Made by a program: the position numbers and the translations under genes. DNA of 64,000 nucleotides, taken from an uncultured Chloroflexia bacterium (GTDB lineage: Bacteria; Chloroflexota; Anaerolineae; Anaerolineales; UBA4823). Shown piece by piece: positions 2,997 to 40,260 of this stretch. Each line of letters starts with the position of its first letter. Positions within the stretch are counted from its first letter, which is position 1. The notes under the pieces are model-generated. The model was given only the letters and a program-made list of their open reading frames with translations. It searched no databases and was not told where the DNA came from. The stretch lies in contig CAWEKR010000011.1 in NCBI GenBank assembly GCA_963809615.1, positions 50,951 to 114,950 of the forward strand. Direction: 5' to 3'.

Positions 2997-3464
2997 TTAT
3001 TTGGTATTAACTTTACCTTCGATCATTTTCTGATCGATGACCTTGATTGAAATGCGCTTTGGTTTGACTTCTTCTGCCTTGGGCAAGCGCAGGGTCAACA
3101 CACCGTTCTGGTGTGAAGCTTCAATGGCATCAGCTTTTATCCTTGTCGGCAGGCTGATGCTGCGGGCAAATGATCCATAGCGGCGCTCGCGCAGGTGAAC
3201 CTGGTTTTCCTCGACCTCGTTTTCCGATTTGACCTCACCTTTGATGGTGAGGGTGTCGTCAACGTAGGAGACATCAAGGTCATCCGGATTGATGCCGGGG
3301 ACGGAGGCTTTGACGATGAAATCATCCTTGTTCTCAACCACATCCATGGCTAAACCCCACTGCATTGGCTGCCATTCATGGTCTGGATTGGCATTGTCGA
3401 ACCGACGATCGACGGTGCGGCGAAGGTTCAGCATTTCCTGGAAAGGATCCCATCGAGCTAACAT
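2997..3464 (-). CDS. Small heat-shock protein, Hsp20/alpha-crystallin family
   Basis: Alpha-crystallin domain (FIVKASVPGINPDDLDVSYVDDTLTIKGE...RRYGSFARSISLP...GVLTLRLPK). GGAGGT lies 7 nt upstream of the second ATG (3464), so I trim 5 codons from track ORF 2997..3479. Confidence 0.9.
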   Translation of the reverse strand: MLARWDPFQEMLNLRRTVDRRFDNANPDHEWQPMQWGLAMDVVENKDDFIVKASVPGINPDDLDVSYVDDTLTIKGEVKSENEVEENQVHLRERRYGSFARSISLPTRIKADAIEASHQNGVLTLRLPKAEEVKPKRISIKVIDQKMIEGKVNTK

Positions 3465-3679
3465 AGTTTTTACCTCCATCGTTATGAAAAAGTTGTTATT
3501 TTAGATTTCCTAAAACTATCCGTACTATAGAGTAAAATTGTTAAAATCAAAAATGAAAAATATCTGAAATTTATAAGAAACCTTCCCATCACTGTGATTG
3601 TCTTCATGGAGATCAGTGTGGACCCAATGGAAGGTTATTTATTCTAAAGGTAATGTGATGCAACAGCAAATAATATGAC

Positions 3680-4525
3680 ATGACTGAAAAACGAGGACTG
3701 GTCTTAACCCTGGTTATCGGAACAGTGGTCATATTTGTCGGATTGGTTTGGGCAATCTCCACTTACCTGCCGCTGAATTTAAACGCCTCTCCCAGCCCCA
3801 CTTTTACCGTCGATGCTCCACGGGTGGCGATGAACTGTGCTGCGCCGATTGCTTTTTGGCGGGAGCATCCAGAGTTATATCCGGTCCAGCTGGTGATCGC
3901 GGGACAAGTGTACCAATCGGGGGAACTTAAGGTGATCTTTTCTGGTCAAACTGATGACCTGCCAACGAGGTTACAGGCCCAGCTCACGGCAGCATACTTG
4001 AACATTCTATCTGGTGCAGACCAGAGCTACATAGAAACAACCATATTTGAAGCCTATGGGTGGGTAGTGGAGCACCCGGCAGGGAGCCAGATAGATGGTA
4101 GTGTGCAAGAGGAAGGAACAAGGTTATATAACCTGTTGGAGGCGTATAACCTGGGATTAACAGGCGTGGCGCCATGTGAAATCGAATTATTAACTATGAC
4201 CGAACCGGTAAAGATGGCTGATACGGCAACAGTCGTTTTTACACTGACACCCGGCCAAACCGAGACTGCCACACCCAGTGAGACCCCCAGCCCGACGAAC
4301 TTTCAAACCGAACCCATCTACACTGTGGTCGTACCCTCCCGAACGCCGAGCCCAACAAGAAGAAACACCGATCAGCCAGCATCGACACCCACGAATACAA
4401 CTGAACCAACTGCGACCAAAGCGCCAACAAATACACCTGCACCGCCGACGGCTACAACTGAATCCCCACCCACCTGGACGCCGCCTCCAATCGTTCCCAC
4501 CTGGACCCAGCCACCAGTACCTTAA
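3680..4525 (+). CDS. Membrane-anchored hypothetical protein with a Pro/Thr-rich C-terminal tail
   Basis: 281-aa ORF with an N-terminal TM helix (LVLTLVIGTVVIFVGLVWAI) and a globular middle. The C-terminal ~90 aa are TPSPT/TNTPAPPTATT low-complexity sequence. I recognise no family. Confidence 0.6.
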   Translation: MTEKRGLVLTLVIGTVVIFVGLVWAISTYLPLNLNASPSPTFTVDAPRVAMNCAAPIAFWREHPELYPVQLVIAGQVYQSGELKVIFSGQTDDLPTRLQAQLTAAYLNILSGADQSYIETTIFEAYGWVVEHPAGSQIDGSVQEEGTRLYNLLEAYNLGLTGVAPCEIELLTMTEPVKMADTATVVFTLTPGQTETATPSETPSPTNFQTEPIYTVVVPSRTPSPTRRNTDQPASTPTNTTEPTATKAPTNTPAPPTATTESPPTWTPPPIVPTWTQPPVP

Positions 4526-4761: not shown

Positions 4762-6558
4762 ATGAAGAAAATCCTAAGCTTGACTGTTCCGCCTGGGCTA
4801 GTGGTAATTCTATTCATAATCATCCTTTCATATGTACCAGCAAGTGCGTCTACAGGCGGCTCAACCCTGGTGGGGGAAAATAACCGATCTGAACAAGCGG
4901 GTCCGCCATGGTTCGATGAAGCATGGCATTACCGGCGAGCGGTGGTTATCTCCAATGACGGAACAAGCCTTTCTTATTATCAAGTATTGATCAAGCTCGA
5001 CATTAACAACTTTGTTTTCAGCCGGGCGAAACCAGATGGATCGGATGTTCGCTTCACGCACAGTGATGGAACCACAGAACTAAAATTCTGGATCGAATCT
5101 TGGGATAACCTAAACAGGCTAGCATACGTGTGGGTACGTGTTCCTGCCGTGTCACCCGGCGATACGCCGATTTACCTATATTATGGCAACCCCGAGGCAA
5201 GCTCAGCAAGTGATGGTAATAGCACCTTTGACAGTTTTGATGACAATTGGATTTTTAATAGTGAGGGATCAAATCAAAGCGTTGAACCCGCCATTCAACA
5301 AACTACAGAAGAAGTATACAGCCCATTCGAATGGGAGCCCATCAGCGGAACACCCGAGGTAATAGCGGGGATTCTCAACCTGGCTGATGGGACGGGGATT
5401 AAATCTTCGTCAAGTTACCAATTTCGCGCAGTTGGTATGCGGGCGAACTACAGCTTGAATTCGACCGATGAATGGATCGGTTTTATTAATGGTACCAGTG
5501 GTCCGCGGACTTTGATCAGCGACAATAAAGCAGGAAACGTCGATGATATCTACCTGCTTGATACAGTAAATGGTTCTGACTTTGATTACGTCGTTTTACC
5601 AAAAGTAGAGGAAGATAACTGGCATGGTGACATGCATGTGTATGAATTACGCTGGGAACTTGGGCAAAGCCGAGGAGATATCGATCATGGTGCTTCCACA
5701 GCATCATCGAACCTGCCTGGGCTTGTTCCAAACGTCTCCTTACCCGTTTCAATCTATAATGATACAGACTCAGGCGGAACCCTGCTGGTGGATTGGGTGT
5801 ATGTACGCCAATACCGAGACCCAGAACCGATATCTTCCGTGCAAGGCGAGCAAGGGTTGGTTGAGCTGAGTATTGAGGATATAGATTACCCTGACCCGGT
5901 AAGAAAAGATGCAAAACTCACCTACCAGCTTACGATTGCCAACAGCAGCAGCATCAATGCGCCTGGGGTAGTCGTGACCGACACATTGCCCGGGAATATT
6001 CAAATCGGGTCGATAAGCCCTTCGCAAGGAACCTGCGAGCCTGGTAGCGTGGTTCTATGCGATCTTAACATCCTTTCTGCAAACACGACGGCAACAATTA
6101 CGATTGTGGTCACACCTACGGTTGAAGGGATAATTACCAATACTGTGGCGGTAGGTTCGCTGGGTTATGAGCTGGATCTAAGGGATAATTCCAGCGTAGA
6201 ATCAACTGTTGTAGATTCTACGCCCCCGGAAGTAGTTTGGGTAAAACCAGTAACCAATGGAAACGTATTCATCACGTTCGATCGAATAATCACCTTCGAG
6301 ACTACAGCCTCCGACAATGATCAGATCAACCGGGTGGAATTCTGGTGGTATGACGGGGAAAATTATTGGCATATCGACACAGTTATAACTCCACCATACC
6401 ATTCGTCATTCGATACAAGCGTTCTTCAACCAGGAATTCCATATTGGTTTGAAGCCAGGGCGTATGATAGGGCGGGTAATTCAAATTTTCCGTATAACCG
6501 CAGTTATATATACATCATTCGGCATCCTATAAATTATTTACCACTGATGTATAAATAA
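4762..6558 (+). CDS. Exported DUF2341-domain protein with a DUF11-type repeat and a C-terminal Ig-like domain
   Basis: N-terminal signal/anchor. A DUF2341-like block follows (WHYRRAVVISN...DGSDVRFTHSDGT.LKFWIESW...YVWVRVP...IYLYYGNP). A DUF11-like module is LTYQLTIANSS..VVVTDTLP...ATITIVVTP. ATG 4762 is preceded by GAGGTGA; the track ORF starts at 4753. Confidence 0.75.
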   Translation: MKKILSLTVPPGLVVILFIIILSYVPASASTGGSTLVGENNRSEQAGPPWFDEAWHYRRAVVISNDGTSLSYYQVLIKLDINNFVFSRAKPDGSDVRFTHSDGTTELKFWIESWDNLNRLAYVWVRVPAVSPGDTPIYLYYGNPEASSASDGNSTFDSFDDNWIFNSEGSNQSVEPAIQQTTEEVYSPFEWEPISGTPEVIAGILNLADGTGIKSSSSYQFRAVGMRANYSLNSTDEWIGFINGTSGPRTLISDNKAGNVDDIYLLDTVNGSDFDYVVLPKVEEDNWHGDMHVYELRWELGQSRGDIDHGASTASSNLPGLVPNVSLPVSIYNDTDSGGTLLVDWVYVRQYRDPEPISSVQGEQGLVELSIEDIDYPDPVRKDAKLTYQLTIANSSSINAPGVVVTDTLPGNIQIGSISPSQGTCEPGSVVLCDLNILSANTTATITIVVTPTVEGIITNTVAVGSLGYELDLRDNSSVESTVVDSTPPEVVWVKPVTNGNVFITFDRIITFETTASDNDQINRVEFWWYDGENYWHIDTVITPPYHSSFDTSVLQPGIPYWFEARAYDRAGNSNFPYNRSYIYIIRHPINYLPLMYK

Positions 6559-6611
6559 ATCAGATCGGGATCAATTTATTTTTTTGTTGCATCTAACAGG
6601 GGGGAGTATTA

Positions 6612-7739
6612 TTAACGCGCGGCTCGCAGGGCTGGTTGGAGTGATTCCTGGCTGCCGTCAAGGAAACCAGCCGGCAGTGCCAGGGATGCCATTGATGCAC
6701 CTGGCTGGCTTAAGGCGGACGTGGGGGTGTAAAAAAAGGCGACCTCGCCTCCGGGCTCAGGCTGGTAGGTATAAAAAAGGTAGGTACCATCGGGGCTCCA
6801 GTGGGCATCGCGATAGCAGCACGATCCATTGGGAGTAAGCTCTTGGCTTTGGTCCTCATCGAGGTTATAGAGCTGCAAATCGCCAAAGCCTTCATTCACA
6901 TACCCATTCAGTAAGAGTTGGTCATTGCCGTTCCAGGAAAGGCTGGTAATTTCCGGATGGTCATAATAGCCGCGCAGGGTGAAAAGAAAGTGTGTGGGGA
7001 GGATGTCCTTTATCAGCAGAGGGGTGGCTGAGCATTGGTTAAAGTCCAAAATGCTGACCTCATCGCGATAAATCCCATCCACCAGCGTTGAAAGCAGCAT
7101 TGCCAGGCGGTTATTGGCCAGGGACCACACAGCAGCTTTCAAAACTTCGCCGGTATTGTAGGGAGCGAAATATGAACACTTGGCGTTTGAGTGAATATCG
7201 GCGGGCAGGCTCTCCTGGGGTAAGCTGAACAGCTGTGTATAGGGAAGCAGGTACAGGTTTGATCCTTCCAGCCCCAAGGCAACCTGCTGACCATCAGGCG
7301 AAATGTCGAAGGCGCTGATCGTGGGGAGGCCGGTAAAACAGGTCAGGGTCAGCACCTCCCGGGTATGCAGACCGACCAAATTGATGCAGTTGTCGGAAGT
7401 GTAGATTACCGATTGACCTTCGGGAGTCCAGTGCAGATTGGATTTCTTATCCCCATCGGTGGTCAGCTGGACGAGCTCGCTGCCATCCAGGTTGGAGGCC
7501 CAGATATCCGAGGACTTCACGAAAGCAAGCTTATCCGCCTGACCGAGTACCAGGGGGGATTGCGAGGAGGAAGTGACTGTACCTATGGCTTGAGATGGTA
7601 ACGTTTCCTGGATATTCGGAGTGTCTGGTTTTAGCAAAGAGCCCGATTTGGGGGTAAATGGGAACACACCTTGCGTCCATAGGATAATCGCAACGGACAG
7701 GATGACGAGCACGGCGGCGGTTAGCAGCCAACCCCACAC
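6612..7739 (-). CDS. Membrane-anchored PD40/TolB-like beta-propeller protein
   Basis: N-terminal TM helix WGWLLTAAVLVILSVAIILW. Recurrent PD40-type blades (HWTPEGQSVIY, ISPDGQQVAL, HWSPDGTYLFY). The GTG start has no SD; see the finding on possible fusion with the upstream kinase. Confidence 0.7.
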   Translation of the reverse strand: MWGWLLTAAVLVILSVAIILWTQGVFPFTPKSGSLLKPDTPNIQETLPSQAIGTVTSSSQSPLVLGQADKLAFVKSSDIWASNLDGSELVQLTTDGDKKSNLHWTPEGQSVIYTSDNCINLVGLHTREVLTLTCFTGLPTISAFDISPDGQQVALGLEGSNLYLLPYTQLFSLPQESLPADIHSNAKCSYFAPYNTGEVLKAAVWSLANNRLAMLLSTLVDGIYRDEVSILDFNQCSATPLLIKDILPTHFLFTLRGYYDHPEITSLSWNGNDQLLLNGYVNEGFGDLQLYNLDEDQSQELTPNGSCCYRDAHWSPDGTYLFYTYQPEPGGEVAFFYTPTSALSQPGASMASLALPAGFLDGSQESLQPALRAAR

Positions 7740-21742: not shown

Positions 21743-21771
21743 TTGACCTAGAACAAATGTTCTGTTATACT
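21743..21771 (+). promoter_or_regulatory. Near-consensus sigma70 promoter upstream of the 81-aa ORF
   Basis: TTGACC (21743-21748), a 17-nt spacer, then TATACT (21766-21771). It lies 82 nt upstream of ATG 21853. Confidence 0.7.
21750..21763. promoter_or_regulatory. LexA-type SOS box candidate (GAAC-N4-GTTC) inside the promoter spacer
   Basis: AGAACAAATGTTCT has 6+6 nt perfect inverted arms (AGAACA/TGTTCT). It matches the Gram-positive/Cheo-box core GAAC-N4-GTTC. Confidence 0.6.
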
Positions 21772-21852
21772 ATAAAGCGTGGCAATTATGCAATAATATC
21801 GAGAAGATCACTCGATATCCAGTAATAAGATAACGTTGGCGGAGGTTTTGAA

Positions 21853-22098
21853 ATGAACATCGGAATGCTGTGGTATGACAATGATAACAAGGCTGACCTG
21901 GCGACTAAAATCCAGAAAGCAGTGAATTATTACCATTTGAAGTATGGGAAGGAACCCAACCTATGCCTGGTGCATCCAAGGACGTTGGGCACAACATCGT
22001 GGAAAAGTGTAGGTCTTGAGGTAAGAACCACACGCTCGGTACTACCGAACCATTTTTGGTTGGGGGTTAATAATAATGGAAACCCGGTTAAATCGTGA
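21853..22098 (+). CDS. Small hypothetical protein (81 aa), candidate SOS-regulated
   Basis: GGAGG SD 7 nt upstream. The sequence is MNIGMLWYDNDNKADLATKIQKAVNYYHLKYGKEPNLCLVHP.... It has no TM helix and no family I can name with certainty. Confidence 0.65.
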   Translation: MNIGMLWYDNDNKADLATKIQKAVNYYHLKYGKEPNLCLVHPRTLGTTSWKSVGLEVRTTRSVLPNHFWLGVNNNGNPVKS

Positions 22099-23092
22099 GC
22101 TCGGTCACCAGCAGCTCAAGGGCCAGCTCTGCCTCCATTTGACCAGTCTTAATCGCTTCATCAAGGTCCAGCAACCGGTGATAGATCATATCAAGGGATT
22201 TACCAGGAAAGTGTGGAGCGCTCTCCATTGCCAGTTTAGCGGGGTAGTAGGCAATTTTTAATGACCTCGGAATGTCATTGATAGATCCACGGTCGTCGAT
22301 CAATTCTTTGGCAATAATTAGCACCCGAATTTGATAAACGATACTCTGAAAGATCCTCCCCGGATCGTCCTCCTGCAGGCTCCTATGGAGCAGTGCTTGG
22401 GCTTTGCCTGGGTTGCGATCACGCAGGGCATTCACCAGCTCGAAATCACCGATTTTCGCAGTCAAGGGAGTGAGGTGCTCAACGTCATCGACATCCACCG
22501 GGCGTGAGAAGTTTACATATGTCAACAACTTGGTAACCTCCTGTGAAGCCAGGCGGGTATCATTACCAATTTGGTTGGAAAGTGAGACAGCTGCCTGGGG
22601 TGTGATTTGCCCACCAACCGATTTCACATACTCCTGGATCCACTTGACCATTTGTGCACCGCCCGGCTGGGGATGGTGGCGCAGGTAGACACGTTTCGAT
22701 TGCTCAGCCGATACAGCCCATTTTTCCAGCCAATTCAGCCTGCCATCTTTCCGTTCTTTTTCGCTGGTGAGGAACTCGTATTCGACCAAAATCAATTTTG
22801 AGCTTGGTTTATCTGCTGCCAGATAGGTTAAGAATTCCTGCTGATCTTTTTTGTCTTTCAGGCGGAAAGTTGGGTGGCTGAGAATGACCAGCCTTTTGGC
22901 AGCCAGGAAAGGTACCGTAGCAACTGCATCTTTGAGCTGGGATAAGGAGAAAGACCTGCCATCCAGGCGGGTGGTATTCATGCCGGCGATGCTGGCATCG
23001 CCGAGTCGGCTGGTTACCTTTTCAATGGATTCGTTGATTGCAAACTCATCGTCGCCATCAAATAGATAAATTTCGGGGGTCTCCTCTGCCAC
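22088..23092 (-). CDS. holA: DNA polymerase III delta subunit
   Basis: 334 aa with a typical HolA layout (YLFDGDDEF..., LSQLKDAVATVPFLAAKRLVIL, C-terminal helical domain). The GTG start immediately follows the TAG of the upstream ORF. Confidence 0.8.
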   Translation of the reverse strand: MAEETPEIYLFDGDDEFAINESIEKVTSRLGDASIAGMNTTRLDGRSFSLSQLKDAVATVPFLAAKRLVILSHPTFRLKDKKDQQEFLTYLAADKPSSKLILVEYEFLTSEKERKDGRLNWLEKWAVSAEQSKRVYLRHHPQPGGAQMVKWIQEYVKSVGGQITPQAAVSLSNQIGNDTRLASQEVTKLLTYVNFSRPVDVDDVEHLTPLTAKIGDFELVNALRDRNPGKAQALLHRSLQEDDPGRIFQSIVYQIRVLIIAKELIDDRGSINDIPRSLKIAYYPAKLAMESAPHFPGKSLDMIYHRLLDLDEAIKTGQMEAELALELLVTELTI

Positions 23093-23094
23093 AC

Positions 23095-23634
23095 CTAGCC
23101 TCGAGTTTGGATGCGGTGGAAAGTGAGGTGACCTTGTTCACGGTGGGTGATAGAGATGACTTCCAGTGAGCCAGGATCACCGGAAGTGGTCACACGCCGT
23201 TGAATTTCCAACCCCAAAGGCTGCGAGAAGATTAAAGCGATGGTTGCCAGGGCGGCAGCGAAGGGTAAGCGGCCAAGTTTATCCTGCCAGCGCCTACCGC
23301 TGCCCAGCATGGAGGCAGCACCTGCCAAACCGGCGAGCGCCCCGGCAGTGGCATAGTTCGTCCCGCAGTTGGGATGAACTGCCAGCTGGCGCTCTCCCGC
23401 TCGCAACCGGGCGATGGCTTCCTGGACTGCGGAATGGAGCAGCTCGGCAGGAACATCACCGATGATCCAGAATCCACCGATGTCGGAATGACCCATCAGC
23501 ATGGTGTGGGGGAGATAGTTCGCTAGAACATGTAAGGTGGCATGCTCCAGACCGTGATTACGGCGGACGTGCGAAATCACCGGGAGCTCCAAAATTGTGG
23601 ACAAACTGTATGCTTCAGGCTGCGCCATGGACAC
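23095..23634 (-). CDS. Conserved-looking hypothetical protein (RRNHGLEHAT / HPNCGTN motifs, hydrophobic C-terminal half)
   Basis: 179-aa ORF that directly abuts holA (stop TAG then GTG). His/Cys-containing motifs suggest a metal site. I cannot name the family with confidence. Confidence 0.6.
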   Translation of the reverse strand: MSMAQPEAYSLSTILELPVISHVRRNHGLEHATLHVLANYLPHTMLMGHSDIGGFWIIGDVPAELLHSAVQEAIARLRAGERQLAVHPNCGTNYATAGALAGLAGAASMLGSGRRWQDKLGRLPFAAALATIALIFSQPLGLEIQRRVTTSGDPGSLEVISITHREQGHLTFHRIQTRG

Positions 23635-38812: not shown

Positions 38813-39706
38813 TCAGGTGAGGTCGAATTCGAGGTATCCCCGACCCTGTTCAGCCTGGTATGCCGTAGTATTGGATGGCGAGGTAGACTGGATCTCCGAG
38901 GGCAAAGTCCGAGAATCAGGAGTGGAGTCAACGGGAGAATAAGAATTTAGACCCTTGAGATCCTCGTCATCCCCAAAGTCATCCTCGTCATCATCATCAT
39001 CTTCATCCCAATCGGATTCGTAATCGTCCTCGTCGTCATCATCCTCGTCATCGTTGTCATCATCCTCTTCTTTATCCGGCTCTGGAATAGCTTCTTCTCC
39101 TTCGAAATCCTCATCGCTCCCAAGATCATCATCATTTTCATCGACCTCAACAGCGGGCACGTCATTCTTATCCTCATCATCAAGGTCGTCTTCATCGTCA
39201 GGCTCATCGCCGTTACTGCCGTCTTCTTCAACCAGGTCTTCATCCTCATCTAAATCGTCTTCATCATCATCAGGATCACCCCCGTTCACCGCGTTAAAGG
39301 TGTTATTGGTTGGAACCAGAGCTACACGTTGGGATGGAAGGAGGTCAAATTTTTCACATTGCCCGATAGAATCACCTTGTGGGATGCGGTAAGAACTGAT
39401 GAACTGAGATGACCCGGTTTGAAGCGGTCGTGCGCTGCGGTCATCGTAAGTACCAGTCTGCACCAGGGCTAGCGCAGTGAGGGTAGTTATTTTTACCACT
39501 AACTGAGAAAACAGGTCACCTGCCGGAGTGGAGCACTCGTTTTGCGGAGTTGGGACGATTGAGGAGAATAAATCCGCTTGGGTGAGTGTGAACATTGTAG
39601 AAGCAGGGTCGGGAGTATTGTTGGAGAGACCAAATAATCCGGCGAAATTGAGGCGTGCCTTGCCAAGGATGCGAAGATGAGGGTTTAAGCGATAATTTGT
39701 CACCAT
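38813..39706 (-). CDS. Hyper-acidic hypothetical protein (central Asp/Glu tract)
   Basis: 297-aa ORF with a non-acidic N-terminal ~140 aa. A ~111-aa tract follows in which I count 72 D/E (GGDPDDDEDDLDEDEDLVEEDG...DWDEDDDDDEDDFGDDEDLKG). The tail is Ser/Thr/Pro-rich. I recognise no family. Confidence 0.6.
   Translation of the reverse strand: MVTNYRLNPHLRILGKARLNFAGLFGLSNNTPDPASTMFTLTQADLFSSIVPTPQNECSTPAGDLFSQLVVKITTLTALALVQTGTYDDRSARPLQTGSSQFISSYRIPQGDSIGQCEKFDLLPSQRVALVPTNNTFNAVNGGDPDDDEDDLDEDEDLVEEDGSNGDEPDDEDDLDDEDKNDVPAVEVDENDDDLGSDEDFEGEEAIPEPDKEEDDDNDDEDDDDEDDYESDWDEDDDDDEDDFGDDEDLKGLNSYSPVDSTPDSRTLPSEIQSTSPSNTTAYQAEQGRGYLEFDLT
38951..39283 (-). repeat. Low-complexity GAT/GAC/GAA/GAG codon tract encoding the poly-acidic region
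   Basis: Read directly: a long run of gat/gac/gag/gaa codons on the minus strand. It generates the Ser-rich shadow ORF 39054..39392 on the plus strand. Confidence 0.85.
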
Positions 39707-40231: not shown

Positions 40232-40260
40232 AATATACCAGAACGCATGTTCTAGGTCAA
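40232..40260 (-). promoter_or_regulatory. Near-consensus sigma70 promoter upstream of the ATL gene
   Basis: The minus strand reads TTGACC (40260-40255), a 17-nt spacer, then TATATT (40237-40232). It matches the promoter at 21743..21771 at 24 of 29 positions. Confidence 0.7.
40240..40253. promoter_or_regulatory. LexA-type SOS box candidate (GAAC-N4-GTTC) inside the promoter spacer
   Basis: AGAACGCATGTTCT on the plus strand, with 5+5 nt perfect inverted arms AGAAC/GTTCT. Its position within the spacer is the same as the box at 21750..21763. Confidence 0.6.

Follow-up and report, generated by a model that had tools for sequence, protein, structure and literature searches.

The locus described here lies in a 64,000-nt stretch of contig CAWEKR010000011.1 from an uncultured bacterium of the Anaerolineales (phylum Chloroflexota). 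This whole stretch is referred to as the window, and its features are given on its own numbering, by direct reading of the sequence (Table 1). At 21743-21771 on the plus strand the window carries a compact promoter-operator module. It consists of a sigma-70 promoter close to consensus, with a TG-extended -10, whose 17-nt spacer is filled by a perfect 14-bp palindrome (AGAAC-N4-GTTCT, 21750-21763). The gene behind it encodes an 81-aa protein that we place, with high probability, in the LexA regulon and, more tentatively, in a damage-response cassette linked to an FtsK-like ATPase. A consensus promoter scan returned the module as the top promoter of the region, with 10 of 12 hexamer matches and the TG present. 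The operator occupies the interval between TTGACC and TATACT, a position suited to promoter occlusion, as would be expected in an SOS regulon.

A second copy of the module precedes an ATL gene, 18.5 kb away on the opposite strand. Counted position by position, the two copies share 24 of their 29 bases, among them the first 13 (TTGACCTAGAACA). By chance, 0.07 occurrences of AGAAC-N4-GTTCT would be expected in the window and 2 are observed; for the 27-nt degenerate module the corresponding figures are 0.00 and 2, also when 2 mismatches are tolerated. Core boxes with a single mismatch are about as frequent as chance predicts (23 observed, 22.2 expected), and the two module copies are therefore the only credible LexA sites in the window. 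The promoter with its embedded operator, the second copy at the ATL locus and the GGAGG Shine-Dalgarno sequence (SD) of the 81-aa open reading frame (ORF) had been described in an initial annotation of this DNA; direct reading and recounting reproduced every detail.

Within the inferred 5' untranslated region (UTR), a perfect 8-bp hairpin, ATATCGAG-N7-CTCGATAT, occupies 21796-21818 on the plus strand. The leader RNA has no Rfam match and its overall fold is unremarkable (z=0.23). Among the orthologs, the hairpin, length and sequence of the 5' UTR are not kept, and the SD alone is retained.

Table 1. Positions of the features of the two module-bearing loci in the window.
Feature	Position	Strand	Basis or remarks
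-35 hexamer TTGACC	21743-21748	+	Direct reading and consensus promoter scan
T between -35 and operator	21749	+	Direct reading
LexA-type operator AGAACAAATGTTCT	21750-21763	strand-neutral	In promoter spacer; core GAAC-N4-GTTC at 21751-21762
Extended -10, TG-T-TATACT	21763-21771	+	Promoter scan; hexamer TATACT at 21766-21771
GT between operator and -10	21764-21765	+	Direct reading
Inferred 5' UTR, ~75 nt	21778-21852	+	Start site inferred from -10 position
GGAGG ribosome-binding site	21841-21845	+	7 nt before ATG at 21853
Coding sequence, 81-aa basic soluble protein	21853-22098	+	Window's founding member of a Chloroflexota family without annotation
holA (DNA polymerase III delta)	22088-23092	-	PF06144, PF21694; convergent with the small gene
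DUF6391 protein gene	23095-23634	-	PF19928, E=1.4e-36; upstream of holA, syntenic neighbour
Extremely acidic 297-aa ORF	38813-39706	-	pI 4.05, 87 D+E; starts 101 nt downstream of ATL
ATL / MGMT-DNA-binding-domain gene, 134 aa	39808-40212	-	PF01035, E=3e-19; second module upstream
Second module copy, TTGACC-T-AGAACATGCGTTCT-GG-TATATT	40260-40232	-	Operator at 40240-40253

Conservation of the module and its regulon

The comparison set comprised 80 orthologous loci, 584 kb in total. At 42 of these an exact GAAC-N4-GTTC box lies no more than 300 nt upstream of the small gene, and at 22 more it lies 600-1100 nt upstream, before a co-directional gene that directly precedes the small gene. An exact box thus heads the transcription unit at 64 of the 80 loci (two others are incomplete on the upstream side), and the concern, expressed in the initial annotation, that orthologs might lack the box is not borne out. 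The 584 kb contain 77 exact boxes, and nearly every one of them stands at the head of an operon in this way. Extra boxes in loci L013, L017 and L055 have no promoter context and are for that reason treated as chance occurrences.

Among 22 aligned upstream sequences from relatives at close and intermediate distance (columns 37% identical on average), invariance is confined to the start codon and to three promoter elements, namely the -35 (CTT-AC), the -10 (TAT..T) and, between them, the operator (AGAAC..ATGTTCT). This pattern holds while synonymous sites are saturated (synonymous divergence, dS, at least 0.9). The conservation of the operator is a textbook phylogenetic footprint.

An unbiased scan of metagenome contigs for TTGACN-T-AGAAC-N4-GTTCT-NN-TATA yielded at least 120 loci; the first substantial downstream ORF was taken (112 of the loci listed), these ORFs were clustered and the cluster representatives were named with Pfam. 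Among the matches listed, lexA is the commonest target, with LexA (LexA_DNA_bind and Peptidase_S24) encoded at no fewer than 23 loci. Small LuxR/GerE helix-turn-helix (HTH) proteins follow at a minimum of 19, ATL at 13 or more, and the 81-aa protein family and a Cys-rich protein without a Pfam family at seven or more each. An ATPase with FtsK_alpha and FtsK_SpoIIIE domains was encoded at five or more loci, DUF6504 and a transmembrane (TM) protein at three or more each and RecA at two or more, other pairs and singletons making up the rest of the matches listed. An autoregulated lexA together with recA and repair genes is the signature of an SOS operator.

The operator itself is a familiar one. 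GAAC-N4-GTTC is the LexA motif in Firmicutes and Actinobacteria (PMC4951493), and a variant of that box is reported for Chloroflexi in the same paper, which cites Fernandez de Henestrosa 2002. The palindrome described here is identical to that of the Gram-positive SOS operators (Cheo box, GAAC-N4-GTTC), lies inside the core promoter as they do, and is likewise found at lexA, recA and repair genes of the same clade (PMC4951493). It differs in forming part of a uniform 27-29-nt module, TTGACa-T-AGAAC-N4-GTTCT-NN-TATAnT, in which the A/T on either side lengthens the dyad to 14 bp, and LexA binding in Anaerolineae is putative. The regulatory device is a standard Gram-positive-type SOS operator placed within a promoter. 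With the box conserved in orthologs and the same module standing before lexA and recA, LexA/SOS control of the 81-aa gene, as the initial annotation had proposed, is in our estimation very probable.

A conserved and unannotated protein family

The 81-aa ORF is a real protein-coding gene under strong purifying selection. In comparison with 19 close orthologs, the ratio of nonsynonymous to synonymous divergence (dN/dS) is 0.03-0.10 at dS of at least 0.9, and most nucleotide differences among the close orthologs fall at third codon positions. A noncoding-like pattern of substitution, against which the initial annotation had cautioned, was not found. The product is a hydrophilic protein of 9.2 kDa with a pI of 9.6 and a grand average of hydropathy of -0.54. 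It has no TM segment, the maximum 19-residue Kyte-Doolittle hydropathy being 0.39, and it has no match in Pfam (E<=1), NCBIfam, PHROGs or PADLOC, in agreement with the earlier description of a soluble product without an assignable motif. A sequence-profile search of the PDB likewise gave nothing useful, the best hit being to antibody light chains at E=0.11.

The ORF had also been called an orphan, and this description has to be abandoned. A search of ~5.8 billion proteins retrieved 206 relatives at 59-99% identity, nearly all of them ~81 aa in length; those with names are all from Chloroflexota/Anaerolineales and annotated "hypothetical", and a lookup found the exact sequence of the window's protein nowhere on record. 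In a scan of one genome per species, 541 genomes encode a relative, so that the family spans at least that many. When 1.84 billion cluster representatives were searched exhaustively with a profile, 2116 clusters (at 50% identity) matched at E<=1e-3 and 951 did so at E<=1e-10, and a second profile search with cluster lookup again gave Chloroflexota names only; one family locus, L027, belongs to the class Limnocylindria. The profile search and phyletic check that had been suggested for this protein reveal a large Chloroflexota family with no model in Pfam, NCBIfam, PHROGs or PADLOC. An alignment of 29 family sequences contains 26 invariant columns. Across the wide family the residues M1, G4, M5, L6, W7, D9, A23, Y27, K30, Y31, G32, P35, C38, P42, P65, H67, W69 and G71 are nearly invariant.

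AlphaFold, run on a 105-sequence alignment, gave a model with a predicted local distance difference test score (pLDDT) of 83.7 and a predicted template modelling score of 0.71. All five models agree on the order beta(4-8)-alpha(16-31)-beta(37-40)-short helix-beta(55-59)-beta(67-71) followed by a disordered tail, and an earlier model (pLDDT 78) has the same topology. Foldseek searches with the model, two against the PDB and one against BFVD, returned no significant match (none in the PDB at E<=0.001). Partial, non-significant matches to HK97-type capsid proteins and uncharacterised phage proteins were not interpreted.

Some family members carry additional sequence. In one cluster (P0184; 28 members from Chloroflexota metagenome-assembled genomes) the small domain is followed by a Lys/Ala-rich, histone-H1-like tail. 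A single metagenomic member (P0201) joins it to a sub-threshold GIY-YIG-like domain (E=0.006); the fusion is found on one short metagenomic contig, below the Pfam threshold, and may therefore be an artefact of gene calling. In two members of ~400 aa (P0215 and P0223) the C-terminal part resembles, as judged by eye, a degenerate second copy. A scan of the long members, P0215 and P0223 among them, for informative fusion domains gave the sub-threshold GIY-YIG as its sole match. The H1-like tail, the GIY-YIG-like domain and the second copies may be taken as weak hints of a DNA-associated role.

Gene linkage and possible function

The last 11 nt of the small gene (22088-22098) are shared with the 3' end of the convergent holA, and no credible terminator was found between the two genes. 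The holA-DUF6391 cluster occupies this convergent position at 52 of the 80 loci. The closest loci (L001-L019, 74-90% identity) keep the layout of the window, with the module before the small gene and the latter convergent with holA and the DUF6391 gene. Many of loci L001-L080 retain the wider order of a RumA-like methyltransferase gene, then box, ATPase (where present) and small gene, and then holA and DUF6391 on the opposite strand; in the more distant of these loci holA is only 35-50% identical.

At greater distance, in other Anaerolineae and in Limnocylindria, the module stands before a gene for an FtsK/SpoIIIE-family protein of ~300 aa, which at 27 loci ends ~15-50 nt before the small gene. 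Fuller cassettes are seen in metagenome contigs. The fullest arrangement is that of locus L133, where the module is followed by lexA, a Cys-rich protein gene, an ATPase gene with FtsK alpha and beta domains, a TM protein gene and the small gene, convergent with holA and DUF6391. Locus L178 has the same cassette with a DUF6504-like gene in the last slot, and in L196 the module is followed by the ATPase gene and the small gene, with holA again convergent. At several further lexA loci, too, an FtsK-like gene comes next. No other recurrent partner was found.

The FtsK-like proteins fall into two conditions. Those linked to lexA match PF01580 (E=2e-30) and FtsK_alpha and contain canonical GxTGSGKT and hhhhDEL motifs. 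Conversely, the Anaerolineae copies adjoining the small gene match PF01580 weakly (E=4e-11 to 8e-6), have DDL, DGL or DNL in place of DE with loss of the Walker B glutamate, and lack Walker A in ~12 of 27 cases. These degenerate copies occur within L020-L078 (for example L048 3030-3986 and L027 3044-3976) and look like degenerating pseudo-ATPases. The contrast in Walker motifs suggests a trajectory from an active motor, through a degenerate one, to none at the locus in the window's clade. Throughout this putative trajectory the small gene stays highly conserved and acquires the SOS promoter directly.

Taken together, the explanation that we favour, and consider reasonably probable, is that of a LexA-controlled promoter driving the small protein of an FtsK-linked SOS cassette. 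A LexA dimer bound to AGAAC-N4-GTTCT in the -35/-10 spacer would repress transcription, since an operator inside the spacer would place the dimer in the way of RNA polymerase. Following DNA damage, RecA-stimulated self-cleavage of LexA, as in the established SOS mechanism, would free the promoter and allow synthesis of a monocistronic mRNA with a ~75-nt leader, from which the strong GGAGG site would direct translation of the basic alpha/beta protein. The gene of this protein is the conserved final member of an SOS cassette of Chloroflexota whose fullest form is that of L133, reduced in many Anaerolineae to box, degenerate FtsK-like protein and small protein, and in the window's clade to box and small protein. 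We suggest that it may act as a damage-induced partner or effector of an FtsK-linked chromosome-handling module and that it may retain an independent function where the locus no longer has the motor. A functional link of the 81-aa protein to the FtsK-like module, as suggested by gene linkage, is plausible but tentative.

An association of FtsK with the SOS response has precedent in E. coli, where ftsK is expressed from the SOS promoter dinH (PMC4080785). The Chloroflexota ATPase likewise has FtsK alpha and beta domains and stands behind an SOS module, in linkage with the small gene. It is, however, a short protein (~340-380 aa) without an N-terminal membrane domain or a gamma domain, and its gene shares an operon with lexA and the genes for the Cys-rich, TM and small proteins. 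Moreover, the Anaerolineae copy beside the small gene is catalytically degenerate as judged by its motifs, and the window contains no such ATPase. A second parallel is SmeA-SffA of Streptomyces, in which a small membrane protein is reported to target a SpoIIIE/FtsK-like ATPase to septa (cited in PMC9380542). The likeness is one of arrangement, a small accessory protein and an FtsK-like ATPase in one operon, and no sequence relationship is claimed; the L133 and L178 cassettes also have a small TM protein beside the ATPase. The Streptomyces pair is developmental and was down-regulated after mitomycin C in the Streptomyces study (PMC9380542); the 81-aa protein, for its part, is soluble.

Several observations weigh against the favoured explanation. 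On the regulatory side, 14 of the 80 loci have full upstream sequence and no exact box, a few having one-mismatch boxes only. No lexA was detected in the window by tblastn, and the lexA and recA genes found behind the module lie on related contigs and not in the source genome; LexA binding and damage induction at 21743-21771 are predicted from comparative data. On the functional side, the loss of the Walker B glutamate and the frequent loss of Walker A argue against a simple role as motor cofactor. Within the window tblastn found no FtsK-like ATPase, and in the window's clade none lies within +/-4 kb of the small gene, so that a partner role would require an unlinked ATPase or an independent activity. 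Lastly, with no significant fold match in the PDB or BFVD, the structure of the protein gives no functional clue.

The idea put forward in the initial annotation, that the 81-aa protein is an SOS checkpoint effector, is the first alternative considered here; as a cell-division effector it would block the divisome during repair. The protein is small and under predicted LexA control, and in some relatives (L133) its gene shares an operon with lexA. Genes for SOS division inhibitors often lie beside lexA, examples being yneA, chiZ, sosA and Pseudomonas sulA, and the known inhibitors are lineage-restricted. To our knowledge, all of them except SulA are membrane proteins, and we know of none in Chloroflexota. 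In filamentous Actinomycetota the effector is likewise missing, according to the Streptomyces LexA study (PMC9380542). The likeness to SulA, YneA, ChiZ, SosA, DivS, SidA/DidA and DinI extends to small size, LexA control and, in some relatives, a place of the gene in or next to the lexA operon. It does not extend to sequence or fold: the Pfam scan (E<=1) gave no homology to SulA (PF03846) or to LysM-type inhibitors, no NCBIfam family matched, no structural match appeared in the PDB or BFVD, and the protein is basic, soluble and devoid of a TM segment. With its dN/dS of about 0.06 and its 26 invariant columns it is also far more conserved than the known inhibitors. The conserved linkage to an FtsK-like ATPase suggests another role, although perhaps a related one, and the small TM protein of the cassette in relatives is a better fit to the YneA/SosA pattern. 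Specific support for a checkpoint inhibitor was not found, and we rate its probability as low.

We assign a similarly low probability to the proposal that the protein is an SOS-induced accessory factor directed at DNA or RecA, either DinI/RecX-like or lesion- or nucleoid-binding, with the FtsK linkage being historical. LexA control, the basic character (pI 9.6) and the size would suit such a factor, DinI itself being 81 aa. The H1-like tail of the P0184 cluster and the single GIY-YIG-like fusion point in the same direction, as does the persistence of the gene with its own SOS promoter once the ATPase is lost from the locus. Set against these are the lack of any Pfam match to DinI, RecX, YebG or a DNA-binding family, the lack of a DinI-like or DNA-binding fold among the Foldseek results, and the possible artefact behind the P0201 fusion.

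It is very unlikely that the palindrome is instead bound by a non-LexA repressor, such as a small LuxR/GerE HTH protein, and defines a different regulon. Such a protein is indeed encoded by at least 19 of the 112 module-controlled genes among the matches listed, and LexA binding in Anaerolineae is putative. The commonest target is nevertheless lexA itself (at least 23 loci), in the manner of classic autoregulation, alongside recA and repair genes, and the motif is the experimentally established LexA box of Gram-positives and Chloroflexi (PMC4951493). Least probable of all is that the main output is an RNA, with SOS transcription into holA lowering the clamp-loader delta subunit by antisense or collision: the overlapping 3' ends, the lack of a credible terminator and the convergent holA-DUF6391 at 52 of 80 loci across deep divergence would favour it, but the strong protein-level purifying selection on the coding sequence excludes it as the main role, the small gene occurs without holA at many loci, and any such effect would be at most additional and is pure conjecture.

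Returning to the FtsK-linked SOS cassette, the association of the family with an operon of lexA and an FtsK-like motor argues that it is a real, uncharacterised part of the DNA-damage response of the phylum. We found no paper on the SOS regulon of Anaerolineae and no literature on the 81-aa family, and the SOS regulon of Chloroflexota is essentially uncharted. What is new here is a LexA-regulon gene together with its protein family; the cassette as a new SOS effector system is credible but unproven. The work defines the SOS promoter-operator module of the window's clade, provides a first list of its targets (lexA, recA, ATL, the LuxR-type regulator, the FtsK-like ATPase, the Cys-rich protein and DUF6504) and places a large, strongly conserved and unannotated protein family in a damage-response context. 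Whatever the function of the protein, the 27-nt module offers a practical probe for SOS regulons in Chloroflexota metagenomes.

It is tempting to speculate further that the small protein, the FtsK-like ATPase, the TM protein and the Cys-rich protein constitute, with lexA, an undescribed SOS-induced system that couples chromosome clearing or segregation to septation after damage in the often filamentous Chloroflexota. The small protein would then be an effector that the system cannot do without, and its retention as the sole component, with its own LexA-controlled promoter, after degeneration and loss of the motor would be explained. We regard this extended scheme as doubtful, if somewhat less so than the alternatives above. 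Should an FtsK-linked checkpoint or repair module indeed have the small protein as its effector, the "missing SOS effector" of a major and mostly uncultured phylum would have been found.

Further genes behind the module

L133 contains two tandem lexA paralogs (5539-7147, minus strand) that are 29% identical to each other. Each has its own SOS module, at 6235-6254 and 6989-7008, and the second lexA heads the cassette of Cys-rich, FtsK-like, TM and small proteins.

The LuxR/GerE protein, the second most frequent target listed, is ~142 aa long with a C-terminal HTH (PF00196, E=1.5e-15) and may be a secondary, SOS-induced transcription factor. It was found at L083, L092, L105, L106, L111, L119, L124, L141, L144, L150, L158, L167, L168, L172, L181, L182, L185, L187 and L193. 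The Cys-rich family has the motif DGRIxCSKIxEGDNEVSPNLCRxCPA and no Pfam match, and is encoded either directly behind the module or between lexA and the FtsK-like ATPase (L087, L099, L104, L136, L140, L178 at 3312-3869, L183, and L133 at 5125-5517). DUF6504 stands behind the SOS module in L081, L117 and L162, and in L178 (1303-1629) its gene adjoins holA. A relationship between DUF6504 and the 81-aa protein was considered and rejected (hhalign probability 0.1%, E=0.41), and no mention of DUF6504 was found in the literature.

At the second module of the window, the acidic ORF downstream of ATL has a counterpart in relatives: its N-terminal ~110 residues are conserved immediately behind ATL at 10 or more of 15 ATL loci. 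ATL and the acidic protein look like a conserved, SOS-controlled pair, and one may speculate that the acidic protein serves as a DNA mimic.

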